Source: Methanobacteriota archaeon (lineage in GTDB: Archaea; Thermoplasmatota; Poseidoniia; Poseidoniales; Poseidoniaceae). Taken from it: a DNA stretch of 41,251 nucleotides. A program made the position numbers and the translations under genes. The notes under the pieces were generated by a model. That model saw nothing but the letters and a program-made list of their open reading frames with translations. It had not been told where the DNA came from and made no database searches. Where the stretch lies: NCBI GenBank assembly GCA_002715725.1, contig PAZU01000011.1, forward strand, positions 32,963 through 74,213. The letters run 5' to 3'. Positions 994 to 14,039 of the stretch are shown here, in pieces. Each line of letters opens with the position of its first letter. Within the stretch, counting starts at the first letter, position 1.

Positions 994-1962
994 ATGGTCA
1001 CCGATTTGCTAAATCGCCCTTTGCGTGACCTGAGAATCTCTCTGACCGATCGTTGCAATATGAGATGCAGATACTGCATGCCTAGAGAGCATTTTGATTC
1101 TCATGAATTCCTAGCAAAGAAGGAAATCCTATCTTATGAAGAGCTGACTACCATCGTAGAATCACTTGTCCCATTGGGTTTGACCAAGGTACGATTAACT
1201 GGCGGTGAGCCCTTGTTGCGAAGGGATGTCTGTTCTTTCATCGAAATGTTACCTAAAGAATTAGATTTGGCGATGACGACGAATGGAATCCTACTAGAAA
1301 AGTTCGCTAAAGACCTCGCTGCTGCTGGATTGAATAGGGTGACTGTTTCTCTAGATGCTCTTGATGTGGAAACATTCCAAGCCATGGGAGACACCAATGA
1401 AACACCAGAAACCGTACTTCGAGGGATAGAAGCTGCGCGAATGGCAGGGCTAACCGTGAAAGTGAACACCGTTATTCGAGCAGGTTACAATGAACATTCT
1501 GTTGAAAGGGTTGCAGAACGATTTGTGGGAACAGAAGTTGTTGTGCGGTACATCGAATTCATGGATGTTGGCGAAACAAATTCATGGGTCACAGATGAAG
1601 TGATTACAGGGGAAATGATGCGCAAGATGTTAGAAAATCTACAGCCAATAAAACCTAATCACATCGGAGAAGTTGCCAACCGATACAAGAGAGGTAGTCA
1701 AGAAATTGGTTTCATCGAGAGTGTGTCAAAGCCATTCTGTGGAGATTGTAATCGTGCTAGAATCAGTGCTGATGGTTCTCTTTACACATGTTTATTCGCA
1801 TCTAAAGGAAACGACCTGAAATCCTTGCTAAGAATGGATGCTACAAAGGAACAAATCGCCGAAGCAGTTAGGAGTATTTGGTCGCAAAGAGACGATGCTT
1901 ATTCTCAAAACCGCGGAGAATCGGTAAAGGAAAAGGTCGAGATGTCTTTTATCGGTGGTTAA
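994..1962 (+). CDS. moaA: GTP 3',8-cyclase (molybdenum cofactor biosynthesis radical SAM protein)
   Basis: LRISLTDRCNMRCRYC (CX3CX2C), RLTGGEPLLR, second cluster FCGDCNR...LYTC, C-terminal MSFIGG. ATG 994 preferred over GTG 970. Confidence 0.96.
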   Translation: MVTDLLNRPLRDLRISLTDRCNMRCRYCMPREHFDSHEFLAKKEILSYEELTTIVESLVPLGLTKVRLTGGEPLLRRDVCSFIEMLPKELDLAMTTNGILLEKFAKDLAAAGLNRVTVSLDALDVETFQAMGDTNETPETVLRGIEAARMAGLTVKVNTVIRAGYNEHSVERVAERFVGTEVVVRYIEFMDVGETNSWVTDEVITGEMMRKMLENLQPIKPNHIGEVANRYKRGSQEIGFIESVSKPFCGDCNRARISADGSLYTCLFASKGNDLKSLLRMDATKEQIAEAVRSIWSQRDDAYSQNRGESVKEKVEMSFIGG

Positions 1963-2438
1963 TCAGAGGTTGGCAACTTTATTTTTGCTAGAACTGTATT
2001 GCTCCCTTTATCCACCAACTGGAAAATATGGTTTCCAGAATCACATTCGATTTCTTTACAATTGATGACAAAATAATCTCCTTTAGTGATTGACCACCCT
2101 GCATCACGGTCATGGAATGAAACATTTGAGCCTACAGTACCATACACATCTGCATCATCTACGAAACCATAGTGCTCTTTGATACTCTGACCAGTTTGAT
2201 TGACTAAAGCCCATTCAACTTTTGACGGGTCGAGGGATTGATCTATGCTAGTAATCGAGACTACATGGTAACCATTTGATAGTGCTCTTACAGACACCGA
2301 TGCTTTTGGGTCGGCCTTTTCTACAGTATCTAGTGTAGTCGACATCATCACGAAGACCATGCTTGAGAGCAGAACTGTAATTGCCAGTAAAAGCACAGTA
2401 GCGATGACTGGGCTTACCGCTTGGTCATCTCGGTGCAT
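1959..2438 (-). CDS. Archaeal type IV pilin-like protein (class III signal peptide)
   Basis: N-terminus MHRDDQA|VSPVIATVLLLAITVLL fits the archaeal Pilin_N pattern (A/G-VSPVIA.ILL.AITV). GAGGGG SD-like sequence upstream of ATG 2438. Confidence 0.88.
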   Translation of the reverse strand: MHRDDQAVSPVIATVLLLAITVLLSSMVFVMMSTTLDTVEKADPKASVSVRALSNGYHVVSITSIDQSLDPSKVEWALVNQTGQSIKEHYGFVDDADVYGTVGSNVSFHDRDAGWSITKGDYFVINCKEIECDSGNHIFQLVDKGSNTVLAKIKLPTSD

Positions 2439-2520
2439 GACAGCCCCTCGCATACAAATCACTTGAATCAACCGCTTACATTTTAGGGATTTGATTGAAT
2501 TTGAACGGTCTAGACTTTTT

Positions 2521-6451: not shown

Positions 6452-6635
6452 TGCTCGCCCTCAGATGTTGTCAACCACAGCACCGTTTGAAGGTGTTGTT
6501 TTTTGGGGGAGTGAAATTTTGGCCCCATAGGGGCCTAGAGGTTGAAAATACCCCTCAGAATGTACCTGTTCAGCATCTGAATGAGGTGTAACCTCAAATA
6601 TGGAGAGGAATGGAGGGACGATTAGAGGTATGCGA

Positions 6636-8324
6636 ATGGATGAGAAGCAAACTCTACTTTCTGAACTCCATCAGGCGAGATTAGACCGCCTGAAAGAAAT
6701 TTGTGCCCAGCATGGAATTTCAAAAAATGGTTCTGTAGAAGTTCTACGTGCTAAACTAATCGCAGAACTTGTCCTAGACGAATGGGATTTCTCACCAGAG
6801 GGTATCAGTTCGATTTTGAATAATGACCTAGGAGATGTCTTGGCAGTATTTGGAGTGAAAAAATCTGGTTCCATAAGAGAGAGGAGGCAGCGTCTTTTCC
6901 TACATCTAAACCATGATGCAAAGCAGTTGACCCCAGAGAAACTTGATTCACTATCTCGTGACCGATTGCACGAATTATGCTCGAAACTTGATTTGCCAAG
7001 ATCCGGTGCTAAGCAGGCACTTCTAATGCGAGTTGCAGGCGTACTTACTTCTCAGTCCGGTTCTTGGGGCGTAATTAAAAAGAGCCTAAGAAGGCCGCGT
7101 GGTGCACCGAAAAAGATTGCAATTCCTTCACCGTCTGAAGAATTTGAGTCTCACTCTGTAATCGCTAAACCTATTGCAGTCAATGAAACTGTAGTAGAAG
7201 AAATTATTGAAACTCCAGTAATTGAACCTGAACCAGTTGAGATACACAACGAAGTAGAAATCATTGAGATTAGGCCTCAAACCATTGTAGAGCCAACTCC
7301 AACTCCTCCGGTCGTAGAATTGACGGCCAGTGTTATTGAAATCGAAGGACGTAGTGCTGAAATCGATGCATTATGCAGAGATTTCCTACTGGTCGGTTCA
7401 GTAAATGATGATGAAGATGTAAATGCCTTCGTCTCTAGTTTATCTGAACACGGATTTGCATTAAGTGACACTAATGCTGTGGATTATGTTAAATCGAGAT
7501 TATTCGCATTAGATGAAATGGCCAAAGCAGAAAAGAATGCAATGCATTCTATGCCTAACTCTTGGAGAGAAAGAGAAGCGTTGCGAAAATTCGAAGAAGC
7601 GAGAAATATCCTAAGAAATGCGTTACCTGAAATCATTTCTGAACACAATGGCGAGATGGTCAAGGCTAGAATGGCATTCGAAGACAAGGCTCGAGGTTTG
7701 AACCTAGATTTACGACTGCCATCAGTTTCGGGTAGAGTGCATGCACTATTCGACTTACAGATATCTTTGGATGAGGAAATTGCAGCTACAGACCCTAGAA
7801 CCGCTCGCAGAACTAGAGTCATTCGCCTTCTGCAACATGGGGCTATTCACTTGGGTGCAAATGAAAGAAGAACACTTGACAGGTTGGAAAGGAATATTGA
7901 TGGCTTCGAGCAACTAGTAGAGGCGATTCTTGAAAAATCTGAAGGAATCTATGGAGATGCACAACAAACTTTGGTGATCAGATTCCTCGAGAAAAAGGGA
8001 TATGAAGTCAATAATGCAGAATTACGACCTAGGGTTGTTGCAGCCGCAGGAGTCATCGGTGCTGAATTGGGACATATCGCTCCAAGTGAAATTCCAAGAT
8101 TGGCGCCAGGCATCAAAGTCAGTGACACTGAAGTTGATTCAATAATTACCGATTTGAAGAGATTGGCGCAACAGTTCAAAGCAACCGATGAAGAAGAGGA
8201 TGCTGATGAAGAGATTGAATTAGCAGAATCTGTTGCTGATGCTGCGCAAAGAGTAACATCCATGCGACAGAGAATCGATGGAGTGGATGATTTGCTTGCA
8301 AGATTGAAACTTTCTCACGATTAA
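6636..8324 (+). CDS. Protein with three N-terminal SAP/HeH-like motifs, a Pro/Glu-rich linker and a helical C-terminal region
   Basis: LDRLKEICAQHGISKNGSVEVLRAKL, NNDLGDVLAVFGVKKSGSIRERRQRL and RDRLHELCSKLDLPRSGAKQALLMRV resemble the SAP consensus L..LK..L...GL..SG.K..LI.RL. Start could be 6600, 6630 or 6636; GAGGT spacing favours 6636. Confidence 0.8.
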   Translation: MDEKQTLLSELHQARLDRLKEICAQHGISKNGSVEVLRAKLIAELVLDEWDFSPEGISSILNNDLGDVLAVFGVKKSGSIRERRQRLFLHLNHDAKQLTPEKLDSLSRDRLHELCSKLDLPRSGAKQALLMRVAGVLTSQSGSWGVIKKSLRRPRGAPKKIAIPSPSEEFESHSVIAKPIAVNETVVEEIIETPVIEPEPVEIHNEVEIIEIRPQTIVEPTPTPPVVELTASVIEIEGRSAEIDALCRDFLLVGSVNDDEDVNAFVSSLSEHGFALSDTNAVDYVKSRLFALDEMAKAEKNAMHSMPNSWREREALRKFEEARNILRNALPEIISEHNGEMVKARMAFEDKARGLNLDLRLPSVSGRVHALFDLQISLDEEIAATDPRTARRTRVIRLLQHGAIHLGANERRTLDRLERNIDGFEQLVEAILEKSEGIYGDAQQTLVIRFLEKKGYEVNNAELRPRVVAAAGVIGAELGHIAPSEIPRLAPGIKVSDTEVDSIITDLKRLAQQFKATDEEEDADEEIELAESVADAAQRVTSMRQRIDGVDDLLARLKLSHD

Positions 8325-9556
8325 CGCGTGGCATAGAAACCTTGGATCACTTTGGTTACAGTTTCGATATCGCGAATATCTCTATTCAACAAGTCTGCTA
8401 GGATTTGTTCTCTCTGCTTAATATGCTGTTCAAATTGGGCAGGAGTGATTCCTGCAGCGGTACAAATTGTTTCTCTCATCTTTGAAGGAATACCTGTTTC
8501 CTCAATCTGACCGCTTGCTGCGTTGAACTTCCATATCGCGTTCAAACGAGGCTTATCTCCTTCCATTCCTGCAACTTCAGCAACCTCTGTAATCTTTCTT
8601 GCAGTCTTACCGTCAATATACAATCTTGCTTGTATGATAATCAAATCGAGCCCTGTGAGCATGATCGGAGGGACATTCATTGGAGGATTAATCATTCTAG
8701 TAATGGTCTCCATTGCAGTATTTGCGTGAAGTGAACCGAAGGAGCCATCGTGGCCTGTGTTCATTGCAGTTAGCAATGTAGCAGCTTCGCTAGAACGCAC
8801 TTCACCAACAATAATTCTGTCTGGGCGCATTCTCAAACTTGATTTTAGACAATCGTTCATATCTACTTCCGGGGTTCCATCTGGCCTCTCACGTCGTGTT
8901 TCCATTCTAAGCCAATGGTCGTGGTAGACCTGCAATTCAGCAGTATCTTCTACTGTCAATAAACGCTTGTGCCAAGGAATGTACATACCTAAACAATTCA
9001 ATGTTGTAGTCTTACCAGAGCCAGTACCACCAGCAATTACGAAGTTTGCAGGTCTGCTATCTAATCCCTCAATCCAAACCCACATCATTGCGGCTAAGCG
9101 AACATTCACTGTGCCGAATTTGATTAAATCAATCATAGTAAGAGGGTCCTCACGGAATTTACGGATTGTAAGAGTAGGCCCATCGGGCGATACAGGAGGA
9201 ATCGTTCCATTCACACGGCTTCCGTCTGGTAACCTACCATCGAAAATCGGAACCATTCCAGGGCCATCTCCAAGAGGTACTGAAGTAAATGCTGCAATAT
9301 TTTTTGCAATTTCTAAGCCTTGTTGATCATCTACCCAAACATTTGTTCTACACATGCCATGATCTCTGTGGGCGACCTTGACACATTGTGCACCTCCGTT
9401 ATACATCACTTCTTCCAAATTATCGTCTTCAAGAAGAACTGCCAAATTACCGTAAGGGTTTGGCTCCACTCCTCCATCTACGTGATACATTGGAGAGGGG
9501 TGGTTTGACTCCATGTAGACTGTTACTCTTCCATACTGCTCGAGAATTTTTTCCAT
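8321..9556 (-). CDS. CpaF/TadA/VirB11-family pilus assembly ATPase
   Basis: RLPDGSRVN, TLTIRKF, Walker A GGTGSGKTT, Asp box VEDTAE, LRMRPDRIIVGEVR, His box TGHDG..SLHAN. ATG 9556 preceded by GGAGG. Confidence 0.95.
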   Translation of the reverse strand: MEKILEQYGRVTVYMESNHPSPMYHVDGGVEPNPYGNLAVLLEDDNLEEVMYNGGAQCVKVAHRDHGMCRTNVWVDDQQGLEIAKNIAAFTSVPLGDGPGMVPIFDGRLPDGSRVNGTIPPVSPDGPTLTIRKFREDPLTMIDLIKFGTVNVRLAAMMWVWIEGLDSRPANFVIAGGTGSGKTTTLNCLGMYIPWHKRLLTVEDTAELQVYHDHWLRMETRRERPDGTPEVDMNDCLKSSLRMRPDRIIVGEVRSSEAATLLTAMNTGHDGSFGSLHANTAMETITRMINPPMNVPPIMLTGLDLIIIQARLYIDGKTARKITEVAEVAGMEGDKPRLNAIWKFNAASGQIEETGIPSKMRETICTAAGITPAQFEQHIKQREQILADLLNRDIRDIETVTKVIQGFYATR

Positions 9557-9560
9557 TTTT

Positions 9561-10292
9561 TTAACCTCCAATTACTAATACACCGACGTGATAAATTGAC
9601 ATTGAAACCGCCATCCAGAGAGGCGCCCACCATAATGCAGAGCGCATTCTACCGAGCATCCTTCCACTTACAGCAATAGCCACAAAGGAAGCTGCTCCAA
9701 AGAACATAGTGAATGAAGAATTAAACGAATCAAGTTGGAAACCTTGAGTTCTAGGTGCGAATAGACCCACGATAAAGGCGATTAGGAACGGTAATCCAAC
9801 TGATACAAACATGATGATAAGAATCGCTCTTCCCATTAAATCTGATTCCCTTCTATTCATTAAATCATTCAATCTCTCGTAATCTCTAGACATGTCTGCC
9901 AAGATGTTTTGCAGAGGAGCATCTTGTTCTATAGCAGTAGACATCAAGTGCATTACTCTTTGAACTTGTGATGAGCGTGATTTGGTTGCAAAGTTAGCAA
10001 GTGCTGAATCAAATGAAGATGCATGGCTCTCAGCCAGGGTCTCTTTGAGAAGTTTACCAAGGGTGCCAGTGTTTCTATCGGCTTCAGCCATCATAGCTTG
10101 TTGTAAACCAAGCCCTGCACCTAGTGAATCGGATAAAGCCTCTAGCATTGCAGGTAGGTCATTTTCGATATTTCTACGCCTAATTCTCTCTAGAATCGGA
10201 GGGACACCCCCAATAGAACATGCTACACCCAAAGTAATGATGAACAACAACAAGGGGTCATTTCTAAACATCTCCAGGATACCGAATAACAT
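9561..10292 (-). CDS. Type II secretion system F / TadC-like membrane platform protein
   Basis: RRRNIENDLPAMLEALSDSLGAGLGLQQAM T2SSF-type helices, several TM segments, adjacent to the ATPase. Confidence 0.85.
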   Translation of the reverse strand: MLFGILEMFRNDPLLLFIITLGVACSIGGVPPILERIRRRNIENDLPAMLEALSDSLGAGLGLQQAMMAEADRNTGTLGKLLKETLAESHASSFDSALANFATKSRSSQVQRVMHLMSTAIEQDAPLQNILADMSRDYERLNDLMNRRESDLMGRAILIIMFVSVGLPFLIAFIVGLFAPRTQGFQLDSFNSSFTMFFGAASFVAIAVSGRMLGRMRSALWWAPLWMAVSMSIYHVGVLVIGG

Positions 10293-10295
10293 AGA

Positions 10296-10868
10296 TCACA
10301 ACCCCGGGTCTTTTGTGTGGGCTTTTAGCCCAATCATAGCCATTCCTAACAAAGTCAATAATAGACCTACGTTGACTATACTCATAATCATCCCTTGGTC
10401 CATTGGACCGAATAACTCCTCTGCATCTTCCATCAACTGTGGAGCAATTCCAAGAATTGAGAGAATAATTGGGCCAATCATTCCAATAGAAAGCAGCGTT
10501 TCCGGAACACCGCCTAATTCTTCGATGTACTCCTTTACATTCTCAGTTCGGCTTTCTTCCATCCTCTCTCCTTGCTTCCTCAAGGTTTCGATAATGTCTG
10601 TATTCTGAGTTACGTTATTGAGCATTGTATTGATTACTCTCTTGTAACCATCAGTATCTGCTTTTTTGAGTAATGCTCTGAGTTCTTTTTCCAAAGGTCG
10701 ACCTTTGTTGATATTTTCCATTAAATCAGAAAAATCCTTTGAAATTATACCATAGCCTCCTTGAGAAATAGAATGGATTGCTGCTTCCAATCCAACACCA
10801 GAGCCCATTAGCACGTCTAACGTCCTAATGACGTATAGAACCTCTCTGGACTCATCTAGTGAACGCAT
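10296..10868 (-). CDS. Type II secretion system F / TadB-like membrane platform protein
   Basis: LMGSGVGLEAAI...GYGIISKDF...INKGRPLEKEL T2SSF pattern followed by two TM helices. Confidence 0.82.
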   Translation of the reverse strand: MRSLDESREVLYVIRTLDVLMGSGVGLEAAIHSISQGGYGIISKDFSDLMENINKGRPLEKELRALLKKADTDGYKRVINTMLNNVTQNTDIIETLRKQGERMEESRTENVKEYIEELGGVPETLLSIGMIGPIILSILGIAPQLMEDAEELFGPMDQGMIMSIVNVGLLLTLLGMAMIGLKAHTKDPGL

Positions 10869-10877
10869 TCAATCAAC

Positions 10878-11231
10878 TCAACGGATATCTTCAATCAACT
10901 CGAATTTGTATGTTTTTTCAGAACCATCATACTCGATTTTTCCAAATACACATTTTACATCCCTTTCTTCAAAAGGATCGTGGATATAGGGTTGACCGCT
11001 TCGAAACATGCTCAGAATCTTCTTGTATTCCTCATAATCCATTTCTCCAACTACGGTATATACAGCGGATTCAGCGCCTTCATCAACTAAGTCGTCACCT
11101 TCACCACCATGAAGAACTGTTCGAGTTATTCTTCTTGTGATTGCAACGCTTATGTCTGCATTAGGCAATCTTAACCAGTCTGAACTTGAAGTACCACTTG
11201 CCGGGCGAATAAAGAAATCTGTTCCTGCCAT
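10878..11231 (-). CDS. Small protein resembling phage tail tube-fold / DNA-circularisation N-terminal (Mu gpN, P2 GpU-like) domains
   Basis: Strong SD GGTGAGG, so the gene itself is well supported. RRITRTVLHGGEGDDLVDEG..S..YTVVG...HDP...YKFELIE resembles the RR......G.....DLG...R.F.....HP....F.L.FVE pattern by eye only. Confidence 0.6.
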   Translation of the reverse strand: MAGTDFFIRPASGTSSSDWLRLPNADISVAITRRITRTVLHGGEGDDLVDEGAESAVYTVVGEMDYEEYKKILSMFRSGQPYIHDPFEERDVKCVFGKIEYDGSEKTYKFELIEDIR

Positions 11232-11291
11232 AGCCTCACCTGTGAACCAGTGAGAGCGCGAATGGAACTTGAACCTGTTGGAGTATTCAAC

Positions 11292-12245
11292 TCAATTCGT
11301 GATTTTGAACCAGCCAAACCTGGGTTCGTGAACAGACCCTTCTTCGGTTAATTCGTCCAACGAGGATTCCGATGCATCCCTATCATGCCCTCGAGCAGCA
11401 GCATTAGATAGCAGTGTGTCGAAATCAACACCTTCTCCTTGGTCGAGTCGTGAGATTAAGTCCAACAAGACTTTCTTCAAATCTATTTCTTCATCACTAG
11501 CATTTTCCATCTCTTCAGGTTCCTCAGAATTAGTATCCGTATCCAAACTGGTTTGAGAAGCAGGAATTGTAGGCCCAGACAAATTAGGAACCTTGTCTTC
11601 AGCGATATCTAATGAATTCATTATGTTAAGTCGATAAGTCTCCAAATCGATTTCTCCGTAGTGCTCATTTGCAAGAAGAAGACCTTCTCGCATATTCTCA
11701 GGGATACCGCCTGCTGCTAATGCTTCACCGCTTTTCTCAAGTGATGTAGCTTTCTCATACATATCGATTCTTTCTAGCATACCATTCGATGCTTCAACTA
11801 ACCAATTGCGATAACTTTCACGAGAAATTACTGCTGCTTCCTCAGGTCTTAGACTTGTATATACAGCACCTTCATCATTCTGGAAATAACGAGCTTTGGC
11901 TATCATTAGAAGCATTACTGTCTCGCCATCTTCAATTCTAGAAGATAATTGAATAGTTAGTTCCCTCATCGATTCAGGAGCATAATCTCCTACTGAGAAG
12001 AAATGTAAGCCTGATGGATCTCTTAGTTGCCCTTGCCATAGAGTCGAACCATTCGAGGTTTCTCTAGGGTCCAACCTTTCCAGCATACCAGCAACGACAA
12101 CTCGGTTTACCTTTGCTCCAAGTTTGGTTATTACGAATAATGGGTCGAATTCTCCGGAACCCTGCTGACTCAATGTCGAGTCACTGAATTCTGAAGCAAG
12201 CATATGCCATGCAGGTTGTCTTCTTGCTCTTCTAGCTGGCTGCAT
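11292..12245 (-). CDS. RPA2 / RPA-associated OB-fold protein with C-terminal winged helix
   Basis: RRQPAW, TKLGAKVNRVVVAG, LRDPSG, SLRPE OB-fold motifs. Acidic linker, then wH LDELTEEGSVHEPRFG. ATG overlaps the RPA stop (TGATG). Confidence 0.85.
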   Translation of the reverse strand: MQPARRARRQPAWHMLASEFSDSTLSQQGSGEFDPLFVITKLGAKVNRVVVAGMLERLDPRETSNGSTLWQGQLRDPSGLHFFSVGDYAPESMRELTIQLSSRIEDGETVMLLMIAKARYFQNDEGAVYTSLRPEEAAVISRESYRNWLVEASNGMLERIDMYEKATSLEKSGEALAAGGIPENMREGLLLANEHYGEIDLETYRLNIMNSLDIAEDKVPNLSGPTIPASQTSLDTDTNSEEPEEMENASDEEIDLKKVLLDLISRLDQGEGVDFDTLLSNAAARGHDRDASESSLDELTEEGSVHEPRFGWFKITN

Positions 12246-13948
12246 CAAACCACCCCCCACTTTGCTCTCAATTCAGCAGCGGCTAGAACAGAATCCGCCT
12301 CAACTAATTCTACATCATCAGATAGCAGCATTGCTCCTTGTTCATCGACAATCGTTCTTCCATTGGCTCTCAATTTCCTACCAAGTAAACGCTCGCGAAG
12401 TTCTTGAACAAAGGCCATGGTTCCATTTTCGACAATATTAGATGAAATTTGTTCTTGGTTCATTCCAATCAAAGATTCGGTTGCGATTTTATTCACAATT
12501 AGCGAAATGGTTGAATGGCCATCATCCAACACCATTCGTAATCTTACATCATCAACTCCCTCATAAGAAGAACATGAAGGAACCGAACATTCCCCGTCCC
12601 TTAGAACTCTACGACATTCGCTACATCTACTGATTATTCCTGAATCCTCTCTAATCGAAATTACATTTCCAGTGGTAGAGATTCCTACTCTACTTGCTCC
12701 TGATGATAAATCCTTGAGAGCGACTTCCACTACATTGTTTGCTAGGTCGATATCGTCTCCCCAAGGTGCTGCTGCTAAAACTTCTATCTGAGTATCATCA
12801 TCAACAGTGATATCCGGAATACCTTGCCAGGCCCTTACTCTTACTCCTTTGAGTCTTACAACGACTGGAGTTGATTCGAAATCGAATGGTGGTTCAAACC
12901 AAATGGAACATCGACATTTTCCGGTCGGGTCTGCGACATCCCCGGACCATACACTCTTTGCTTCTCCATCTCTACCTTGAAAATCTCTCTTGATCATCTT
13001 CTGGATTTCCAAGACAATTTCGACATCTCTTGAACCGTCTCTAAGATCTTCGATTCGGCTAACTGAACGAGCAACTAAATCCTCAGCTGTGGCGAAATTT
13101 GAGTCGTGGAAAATCTCGATTTTGGAAGATGACCCGATATTGATTTCAGGAGTCTCTCTGAATACTCTAACCTGAGCATTCTCGATTTTGATTAAGGATC
13201 CTACTTCATGGTCAAATGATTCCCACGATAAGAATCCAATAGCGCCAGAATCATCAGCAATTCTGCCTCTAACTACATCTATAGAACCAGAGCCGTCTTT
13301 ACGGTGAATTACATCTTTACGAGATGCAAGTAATCTACCAACAACAGTTACAGAACCTTCAGATTTAATCGAGTTGATTTCTACAGGCTCTCCTGGTTTT
13401 GAAACTGTGCGTACGCCTTCTCTTAGAACAACAACACGGCTAGCTTGATTTACATTTATGCTCATGCGGCCTTGGTATTCGTTTACAGAAACACCTTCTA
13501 GGCGCACTACTGCCCCCGGTGCAATGTTTGGATTATTGCCCCAGTCTTTGTATTCCCACCTGGTGCGACTTCCACCTTCCGACCAAGGCTGGTCTTCAAT
13601 TAATCCATAAGGTACAATTTTCTCTTCACCGCGAACCATGGTAGTTCTTGGATTATGAGTAATGATTTCTACTTCGATTTCGACGTTACGATCATCTGCT
13701 GATAAATCGGATAGCCTCTCAACTTTCTTTATTGGTATAGATTGTCTTTGACTTCCTGCAGATTGCTGATTTGATTGAACAGGAGCACCTGTATCCGATT
13801 GGAAACGGCGCAATACAGAACGCATTGCATCCTCAGGTGGAATAAGGAAATCTTTCTCGTATCTAGAGAACGCCTCTGCAACCTTCTGAGGGTCGGCATC
13901 TGGTACTTGTTTGAGAACTTCCGAAACGTGTGCTTCGTAATCAGACAT
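12245..13948 (-). CDS. rpa: Replication protein A, large subunit (multiple OB folds plus zinc finger)
   Basis: Repeated OB motifs (GRIADDSGAI, GDVADPTGKC, RMVLDDG) and Zn finger CSECRR....EC. ATG 13948 preceded by GAGGTG. Confidence 0.9.
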   Translation of the reverse strand: MSDYEAHVSEVLKQVPDADPQKVAEAFSRYEKDFLIPPEDAMRSVLRRFQSDTGAPVQSNQQSAGSQRQSIPIKKVERLSDLSADDRNVEIEVEIITHNPRTTMVRGEEKIVPYGLIEDQPWSEGGSRTRWEYKDWGNNPNIAPGAVVRLEGVSVNEYQGRMSINVNQASRVVVLREGVRTVSKPGEPVEINSIKSEGSVTVVGRLLASRKDVIHRKDGSGSIDVVRGRIADDSGAIGFLSWESFDHEVGSLIKIENAQVRVFRETPEINIGSSSKIEIFHDSNFATAEDLVARSVSRIEDLRDGSRDVEIVLEIQKMIKRDFQGRDGEAKSVWSGDVADPTGKCRCSIWFEPPFDFESTPVVVRLKGVRVRAWQGIPDITVDDDTQIEVLAAAPWGDDIDLANNVVEVALKDLSSGASRVGISTTGNVISIREDSGIISRCSECRRVLRDGECSVPSCSSYEGVDDVRLRMVLDDGHSTISLIVNKIATESLIGMNQEQISSNIVENGTMAFVQELRERLLGRKLRANGRTIVDEQGAMLLSDDVELVEADSVLAAAELRAKWGVV

Positions 13949-14039
13949 TATGAACACCTCGACGGTCCAATTCAATTTCTGGCCCGTCATAGGACGGGTG
14001 TTCGGGCTTTCGTGCTGGTTGGTTCAGTTTAGTGGACAC
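13941..14039 (-). CDS. Candidate 32-aa upstream ORF / leader peptide (MSTKLNQPARKPEHPSYDGPEIELDRRGVHNV)
   Basis: GTG start 6 nt downstream of a perfect GGAGGTGA (14046-14053, minus strand). The ORF overlaps the rpa start and stops in ATGTCTGA. Confidence 0.45.
   Translation of the reverse strand: MSTKLNQPARKPEHPSYDGPEIELDRRGVHNV
13952..14003 (-). promoter_or_regulatory. Structured leader over the rpa ribosome-binding site (alternative hairpins)
   Basis: mRNA sense: GAACACC pairs with GGTGTTC (covers the SD), GACGGgCCA pairs with TGGaCCGTC, and a competing hairpin CCCGTC-ctat-GACGGG can form. Confidence 0.5.

Follow-up and report, generated by a model that had tools for sequence, protein, structure and literature searches.

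X117, a small protein with a predicted phage tail-tube-like fold, is encoded at the head of a type IV filament motor cassette in Poseidoniales

Genes at the X117 locus

The gene X117 is located at positions 10878..11231 on the minus strand of the window, the term used here for the whole analysed stretch of 41,251 nt. It starts with ATG, specifies a protein of 117 aa, and is preceded by a Shine-Dalgarno-like hexamer, AGGTGA (11236..11241, minus strand; tcacct on the plus strand), 4 nt 5' of the start codon. A first-pass annotation had described a 117-aa gene with a strong Shine-Dalgarno sequence, situated 9 nt before a tadB-like gene. Reading frame, hexamer, and spacing can all be read off the sequence, and the translation includes all stretches quoted in that annotation (..NADISVAITRRITRTVLHGGEGDDLVDEGAESAVYTVVGEMDYEEYKKILSMFRSGQPYIHDPFEERDVKCVFGKIEYDGSEKTYKFELIEDIR). 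The protein appears to be soluble and is acidic (pI 4.63), hydrophobic or transmembrane segments are absent, and the N-terminus is not signal-like. Without signal peptide or membrane segment, X117 should work on the cytoplasmic side.

That X117 is a real gene is indicated by its relatives. Out of 193 candidate proteins, 191 match at E<=1e-3, with identities of 63-95% among the 120 matches listed. No functional name is found among those, and the few source names among the listed matches point to Poseidoniales or Marine Group II. A search of 1.84 billion cluster representatives yielded only 58 at E<=1e-3, and many of these are fragmentary. Three marine metatranscriptome runs gave small shares (0.12, 0.10, and 0.05). 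Their contigs included one piece of 190 nt inside X117 (10905-11094, 10 differences) and one of 548 nt across the TadC/TadB junction, both of which could stem from DNA carry-over; pieces bridging X117 and TadB or X117 and RPAb, the nearer of two RPA-like genes upstream, were not among the contigs from these runs.

X117 is the first gene of a cassette of four. It is followed after 9 nt by the gene for a TadB-like platform protein of 190 aa (10296..10868, minus) with one T2SSF domain (PF00482, 1.7e-11) and hydrophobic segments at residues 121-146 and 158-183, and after another 3 nt by that for a TadC-like platform protein of 243 aa (9561..10292, minus), again with one T2SSF domain (PF00482, 2.2e-10) and with weak NCBIfam matches to UpsF and ArlJ. 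The last gene (8321..9571, minus), overlapping the TadC-like gene by 11 nt, encodes a CpaF/TadA-like secretion ATPase of 416 aa (Pfam T2SSE, PF00437, 7.5e-42). In a sequence search of the PDB, the ATPase was closer to GspE2 of A. fulgidus (2oap, 3e-62) and CpaF of Caulobacter (8rkd, 3.1e-62) than to FlaI (4ii7, 2.3e-44). Two hallmarks of Tad/Epd-like systems, an ATPase of the T2SSE/CpaF type and a T2SSF platform split over two genes, are therefore contained in the cassette. A pilin with a class III signal peptide is represented elsewhere in the window, about 6 kb from the ATPase gene, by a candidate of 170 aa with an archaeal type IV pilin N-terminus (1959..2471, minus; Pilin_N 5.9e-10; hydrophobic 16-48). 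A search for a prepilin peptidase gave one Peptidase_A24 match at another place in the genome, with 25.1 bits relative to a cut-off of 26.5 bits. The genome holds three type IV filament systems in all, an archaellum operon, a second pilus system, and the minimal X117 cassette, of which X117 is a strictly conserved extra gene. The candidate pilin is presumably assembled by the X117-associated motor rather than by the two other systems.

Upstream of X117 and on the same strand, two genes outside the cassette were noted. The nearer one, RPAb (11292..12260, minus), is 60 nt away and encodes a conserved neighbour of 322 aa, RPA-associated-like and without Pfam match; the other, RPAa (12245..13990, minus), encodes an RPA1-like OB-fold protein of 581 aa with weak OB-fold Pfam matches. 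They probably represent an RPA pair, the designation of the 322-aa protein as the RPA partner being likewise provisional. Their reading frames overlap by 16 nt (12245..12260), and RPAa precedes RPAb whether or not the cassette is present. Since these genes precede X117 on the same strand, X117 is the first gene of the Tad cassette but perhaps not of the transcript, and the earlier placement of the gene at the head of a Tad operon stands for the cassette only. On the other side, a gene for a SAP-domain protein of 574 aa (6600..8324, plus) converges with the ATPase gene, the 3' ends overlapping by 4 nt. Besides RPA, T2SSF, T2SSE, and SAP-domain proteins, TldD/PmbA was recognized among the neighbours in the window.

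Predicted fold of X117

The AlphaFold2 model of X117, calculated from a 75-row alignment, reached a pLDDT of 86.2 and a pTM of 0.73. A first strand (residues 4-9) is followed by a long β-hairpin (20-39 and 48-63), a helix (66-78), and three strands (82-84, 91-102, and 107-114). The model thereby displays what characterizes the tube/Hcp superfamily, a β-sandwich that is flanked by one helix and from which a long β-hairpin protrudes. Known examples of this fold outside the X117 family come from phage tails, tailocins, injection systems, and type VI secretion systems (T6SS).

Structural comparisons pointed in the same direction. Foldseek matches in the PDB (E 9.7e-5 to 1e-2, probability 1.00) were chains of the diffocin baseplate, the monocin tube, a gene-transfer-agent tail, the lambda tail tip, gpV, and the Mu and Milano baseplates, and 52 matches at E<=1e-3 were obtained in BFVD, including models of the TP901-1 major tail protein, of DNA-circulation N-terminal domains, and of Dit-like proteins. 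VIA-align, which is independent of Foldseek and was run against 48,161 chains, gave top Z values of 10.3, 10.2, 9.7, and 9.7, the best match being 9b45_V (Z 10.3, 108 residues aligned, rmsd 3.2). The best 50 rows are phage-tail, pyocin/diffocin, injection-system, or Hcp entries with the exception of ranks 33 and 38. A second VIA search with the model returned 50 chains at Z>=8. According to the tool's own note, unmatched models typically reach a best Z of 7-8; Z values around 10 together with a coherent list over 108-117 of the 117 residues therefore indicate a genuine, though distant, fold match.

The tube superfamily spans tail tubes, tube initiators, N-domains of baseplate hubs, the N-domain of Dit, and Hcp. 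The predicted fold of X117 corresponds to it over all 117 residues (Z 8.7-10.3, 100-115 aligned), the best chains being 9b45_V (phage Pa193 baseplate), 9g8s_S/T (phiCD508), 6v8i_AB (80alpha), 8v3w_G (diffocin), lambda gpV (7t2e_A), and Hcp1 (8z7k_A). In contrast to the members of this superfamily, X117 is specified by a gene of a chromosomal pilus-motor cassette, shares only 5-15% identity with them, and shows no profile match. A phage tail-tube/Hcp-type fold of X117 is supported at the level of the predicted structure, as the first-pass annotation had suspected from the sequence pattern, and with such low identity and no profile link the protein can be filed under the tube superfamily by fold only.

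Sequence searches were largely negative. No Pfam family matched X117 at E<=1, none of the 75 family members matched a tube-family Pfam entry, no family was assigned by NCBIfam or PADLOC, and PHROGs returned a single unnamed family at E 0.11. The best E values in the PDB were 0.069 for the single protein and 4.5 for the profile, and the proteins matched were unrelated. In the ESM Atlas, X117 is placed among unnamed Thermoplasmatota clusters. The nearest named families there are P2 GpU (0.91) and DNA_circ_N (0.90), scores that are weak and lie in the range where chance matches arise. A likeness to Mu gpN and GpU had also been proposed earlier. Relatives of the Mu DNA-circulation protein do match in structure (8fqc_U1, Z 9.3; 9rku_A1, Z 9.1; 9ki1_u, Z 7.8), but Pfam membership is lacking for both PF07157 and PF06995, and DNA_circ_N and P2 GpU are domains of baseplate proteins of about 400 aa.

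Six residues are invariant in the 75-row alignment, R34, G45, D50, G52, E54, and P86, and four of these (G45, D50, G52, and E54) are borne by the tip of the hairpin. This acidic, glycine-rich tip is also the site of Pfam matches in a few of the 75 members, to EF-hand_7 (5/75, best 0.0022) and Peptidase_M10_C (4/75). These matches are weak and are not taken to indicate calcium binding by the tip. A complex prediction with four copies of X117 scored 0.35 (runs 0.33, 0.36, and 0.35) against a mark of 0.42 that was calibrated on two copies; three controls scored 0.00.

The two exceptions in the VIA list are a flavin-reductase-type monooxygenase component (3bpk_B, rank 33, Z 7.3) and a PilZ protein (3kyf_A, rank 38, Z 7.2, 85 residues aligned). 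The latter raises the question whether X117 could be a small β-barrel regulator of the PilZ kind, which would bind and tune the ATPase, possibly together with a ligand, and would not form a tube-type oligomer. PilZ proteins are marked by the motifs RxxxR and D/NxSxxG. A conserved R33-x-x-x-R37 in X117 resembles the first of them, and the size of the protein and its setting in a type IV pilus operon would also be suitable. The second motif, however, was not seen at the usual spacing when the sequence was inspected by eye, neither X117 nor the 75 family members gave a Pfam match to PilZ, and the tube-family matches are stronger and wider (Z 9.5-10.3, 108-117 residues aligned). A regulator of this kind is therefore considered quite improbable.

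The fold matches in Foldseek, BFVD, and VIA could likewise be taken to mean that X117 is the remnant of a prophage, a tailocin, or a contractile injection system. The genomic evidence speaks against it. No tail, baseplate, sheath, or T6SS genes were detected by Pfam among the 31 other ORFs scanned in the window, the ATPase was the sole PHROGs match among 12 neighbours, and the sheath family PF04984 and the gp19-type tube family PF06841 were not found in the genome, which is 76% complete. The description of X117 as a lone gene with no phage gene nearby is confirmed by these searches. Relatives were detected neither in IMG/VR (six pattern matches, none confirmed) nor in 50,697 phage records, and X117 occupies one chromosomal site in 74 of 74 sampled genomes of the window's own family. 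A phage remnant is accordingly regarded as extremely improbable.

Linkage of X117 to the motor genes in Poseidoniales

For the whole order, 151 genomes belonging to three families were sampled. The X117 family is present in 107 of them: in all 75 genomes of the window's own family (the window's genome G000 included), in both genomes of the second family, and in 30 out of 74 of the third. The TadB-like protein was detected in 99 genomes, 75, two, and 22, respectively. In every one of these 99, the best X117 match shares contig and strand with the TadB-like gene and immediately precedes it on the 5' side, as judged by comparing coordinates by eye. Tblastn searches revealed the block RPAa-RPAb-X-TadB-TadC-ATPase in 29/29 loci of the own family, in 2/2 loci of the second family, and in eight Tad-adjacent loci of the third (L036, L039, L040, L042, and L044-L047). 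Wherever the locus extended far enough, the convergent SAP-domain gene followed. The divergence of X117 roughly keeps pace with that of TadB and TadC: identities are about 66-72% for X117, 63-72% for TadB, and 60-65% for TadC in other genera of the own family, and about 40-54%, 41-46%, and 39-45%, respectively, in the third family. In one genome (G144), the TadB-like match is split into two pieces about 380 nt apart (L010 1864..2764), which could reflect inserted DNA or faulty assembly.

The locus was also examined in five genomes that lack the cassette and are 91-97% complete. All of them have kept RPAa and RPAb and lack X117, TadB, TadC, and the ATPase gene, and in all five the SAP-domain gene comes directly after RPAa-RPAb, so close that the two stop codons adjoin or overlap. 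Four genes are consequently present or absent as one block between flanks that stay, which ties X117 to the motor and not to RPA. The SAP-domain protein itself measures just 327-334 aa in genomes without the cassette (L058 5253..6257; L062 4643..5626), and it is the stop codon of this short gene that adjoins or overlaps the one ending the RPA-partner gene.

These loci also bear on the possibility that X117 is a third, RPA14-like subunit of an RPA complex encoded just upstream. Its position behind the RPA pair, on the same strand and at a distance of 60 nt, its small size, and the order β1-β3/helix/β4-β5, as in an OB fold, would be in line with such a role. But RPAa and RPAb occur without X117 in 5/5 cassette-less genomes, so that the co-occurrence expected of a subunit is not observed, and OB-fold proteins are missing from the best 50 rows of either VIA list. 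The phyletic pattern largely refutes an RPA subunit, which we regard as very improbable.

With the ATPase as query, no match was obtained in four of the five cassette-less genomes, and the fifth contains a 34%-identical match elsewhere. The candidate pilin at 1959..2471 shows, by genus, the distribution of the TadB-like protein (99/151 genomes). As the cassette-less genomes mostly lack an ATPase match and have lost the pilin as well, the joint loss may mean that all surface filaments were lost. A matching split between presence and absence is reported for a 'flagella operon' in the part of Rinke et al. available to us (PMC6461757). The phyletic pattern by itself does not distinguish this motor from surface filaments at large; adjacency does.

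Family members and motors that occur apart

The linkage is not complete from either side. A second member of the X117 family, 50% identical and without Tad genes, is found in the genome of the window. It lies between flavodoxin-like and Lon-N-like genes (named by eye), a context kept only within the genus, and 700 nt downstream of a gene for a surface protein of 1051 aa. The latter (L003 4470..7625) contains about ten tandem repeats of about 35 aa, Asp-rich and with paired Cys (CDYDLDDDGVLDVDE..GCT.S.ANNF.PLATD.DG), and ends in a hydrophobic anchor. Eight of the 151 genomes possess an X117 family member and yet no TadB-like match. In four of these eight the neighbourhood was inspected and contained none of the panel genes; among five checked genomes with a family member and no TadB-like protein, three (G009, G059, and G067) gave a weak T2SSE match only. 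The lone paralogues retain the invariant residues in the absence of Tad genes. In a sample of 301 genomes of the phylum, distant X117 matches were present in eight genomes outside the order, and T2SSE or T2SSF neighbours were not detected at the seven loci inspected, all from other Thermoplasmatota. Co-occurrence with this Tad clade, named in the first-pass annotation as a means of checking, therefore holds without exception for adjacency to the TadB-like gene (99/99), but not for the lone paralogues and the seven distant homologues. Homologues apart from Tad genes, which had been named there as evidence against the proposal, do exist for this part of the family and not for the Tad-linked copies.

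Four of the seven distant homologues (L065, L066, L067, and L068) are situated directly downstream of genes for very large secreted-type proteins, namely S8 subtilases with CARDB of 1243 and 1256 aa, a PKD/NosD protein of 963 aa, and an Ig-like protein of 863 aa. Hcp has a chaperone role, and an X117 ring could in the same manner hold a client in its lumen, for example a prepilin or a large secreted or surface protein, and hand it to the membrane machinery. X117 would then be a handler of substrates and not a structural part of the motor. The good matches of Hcp chains (8z7k_A, Z 9.1; 9vne_B, Z 9.1; 7yw0_A, Z 8.4), the location of the four distant homologues and of the genome's paralogue behind large proteins, and lone copies suiting a more general role all favor this explanation. 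On the other hand, the context of the paralogue is not kept beyond the genus, and most of nine other paralogue loci have no directly adjoining giant ORF. A general rule that paralogues stand beside giant surface proteins was not borne out by these nine loci, and an Hcp-like carrier is considered unlikely.

Motors are also found without X117. Sister lineages contain ATPases 49-54% identical to that of the window, and two ORFs of TadB/TadC size precede the ATPase gene in 9/12 of their loci, with a tblastn match to TadB or TadC in 5/12. X117 was detected by tblastn in none of these 12 loci, and the motor in general does not need it. Small ORFs do occur 5' of the TadB-like gene in three sister loci. 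The one in L072 specifies an unrelated basic protein, and those in L074 and L075 look like wrong-frame ORFs when inspected by eye.

From such cases it might be argued that X117 is an unrelated small protein that stays beside the motor merely through inherited gene order and co-transcription. Lone paralogues with all invariant residues and sister-lineage motors without X117 are in agreement with this argument, and because the six-gene order is inherited across Poseidoniales, adjacency alone is not independent evidence against it. Nevertheless, the 9-nt gap and the 99/99 adjacency have persisted while RPAb, TadB, and TadC diverged to 34-46% identity, and X117 vanishes precisely when the three motor genes do, with the genes on either side remaining in place. 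A function unrelated to the motor is considered unlikely. In a tree of 58 family members, the distant clade was split off (100/99), and the backbone inside the order was not resolved; hence, neither an order of duplications nor a single clade of the Tad-linked copies can be read from the tree. Taken together, X117 looks like an addition, made in the ancestor of Poseidoniales, to an older motor core, drawn from a family that also works alone.

Relation to known type IV systems and possible function

A split platform and a CpaF-like ATPase are shared with the bacterial Tad core (TadB, TadC, and CpaF/TadA) and with the Epd core of Methanococcus, which consists of two platform genes and an ATPase gene. 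Pilins encoded away from the motor operon are known from the CdiP pilus of Cuniculiplasma divulgatum. In the accessible portions of the respective papers, a split platform and pilins distant from the motor operon are described for CdiP (PMC12448462), and two platform genes and distant pilins for 'System 1'/Epd (PMC13705601). CdiP differs in having two ATPases instead of the one in the X117 cassette, and a tube-fold protein or a comparable small soluble first gene is not mentioned for Epd, Tad, or CdiP in the text of these sources at hand.

Lineage-specific extra genes in motor operons, with unclear or scaffold-like roles, have precedents in AapX, UpsX, ArlX, and ArlH. X117 is likened to these by operon position, and kinship in sequence or fold is not expected. 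The location and function of AapX are stated as unknown in the sections consulted of PMC12448462, and AapX is described as an Fe-S protein family in those of PMC13705601. The first-pass annotation knew of no such component in described archaeal type IV pilus systems, and this holds for the literature searched, as far as its text was accessible: an X117-like component is not described in the papers on Poseidoniales pili and archaeal type IV pili, including the available parts of PMC4858521 and PMC12448462, and tail tube, Hcp, and Poseidoni- are not mentioned in PMC13705601. Supplementary tables could list it as an unnamed arCOG.

Based on linkage and predicted fold, X117 may well be a lineage-specific, probably oligomeric cytoplasmic accessory of a minimal CpaF/Epd-like type IV filament motor, an assignment that we make tentatively. 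The motor would comprise the CpaF-like ATPase together with the platform split into TadB and TadC, the pilin gene lying outside the cassette, and X117 would be the motor's cellular accessory. Like other proteins of the tube fold, X117 could oligomerise, and the conserved acidic hairpin tip (G45, D50, G52, and E54) might serve as a contact surface. The oligomer could then bind to the ATPase hexamer or, from the cytoplasmic side, to TadB/TadC, where it would act as a scaffold or adaptor comparable to ArlH, ArlX, AapX, or UpsX rather than as a secreted tube.

A bolder version, close to the domesticated ring-forming subunit imagined in the first-pass annotation, is that the ancestor of Marine Group II recruited a tube-fold protein whose ring shares its axis with the hexameric ATPase and the split platform and serves as a cytoplasmic collar or conduit. 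The constant RPA and SAP-domain neighbours suggest that such a machine might handle something other than an ordinary adhesive pilus. We consider a coaxial ring distinctly unlikely; if it were true, the tube superfamily would for the first time be linked structurally to type IV filament machines.

In the surface ocean, the archaea of Marine Group II rank with the most abundant ones, and to our knowledge no member is in culture. Their surface filaments are thought to mediate attachment to particles, as stated in the accessible part of Rinke et al. (PMC6461757). Should X117 prove to be a part of the motor, it would add an accessory of a novel type to type IV machines and show the tube fold in a new cellular function. 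The protein is tractable, being small, soluble, and acidic, with its candidate partners encoded alongside.

Additional observations on pilin-like and ATPase genes

A pilin-like N-terminal segment, 30-42% identical to residues ~10-116 of the candidate pilin, heads giant frames of about 4500-4700 aa. The segment in the genome of the window (G000:C31:9110-9448) is the head of a frame of at least 3214 aa, and similar ones are present in many genomes of the order. Such a frame would specify a giant protein that begins like a type IV pilin. Two genomes of a sister family each contain a frame of 862-870 aa with two tandem CpaF-like ATPases, each about 50% identical to that of the window (L079 2049..4637, minus; L080 4133..6745, plus). 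Finally, single in-frame stops (TAA/TGA) interrupt otherwise full-length orthologues of the pilin in G066, G038, and G132 and of the ATPase in G072, G038, and G017, which may represent assembly errors or pseudogenes.
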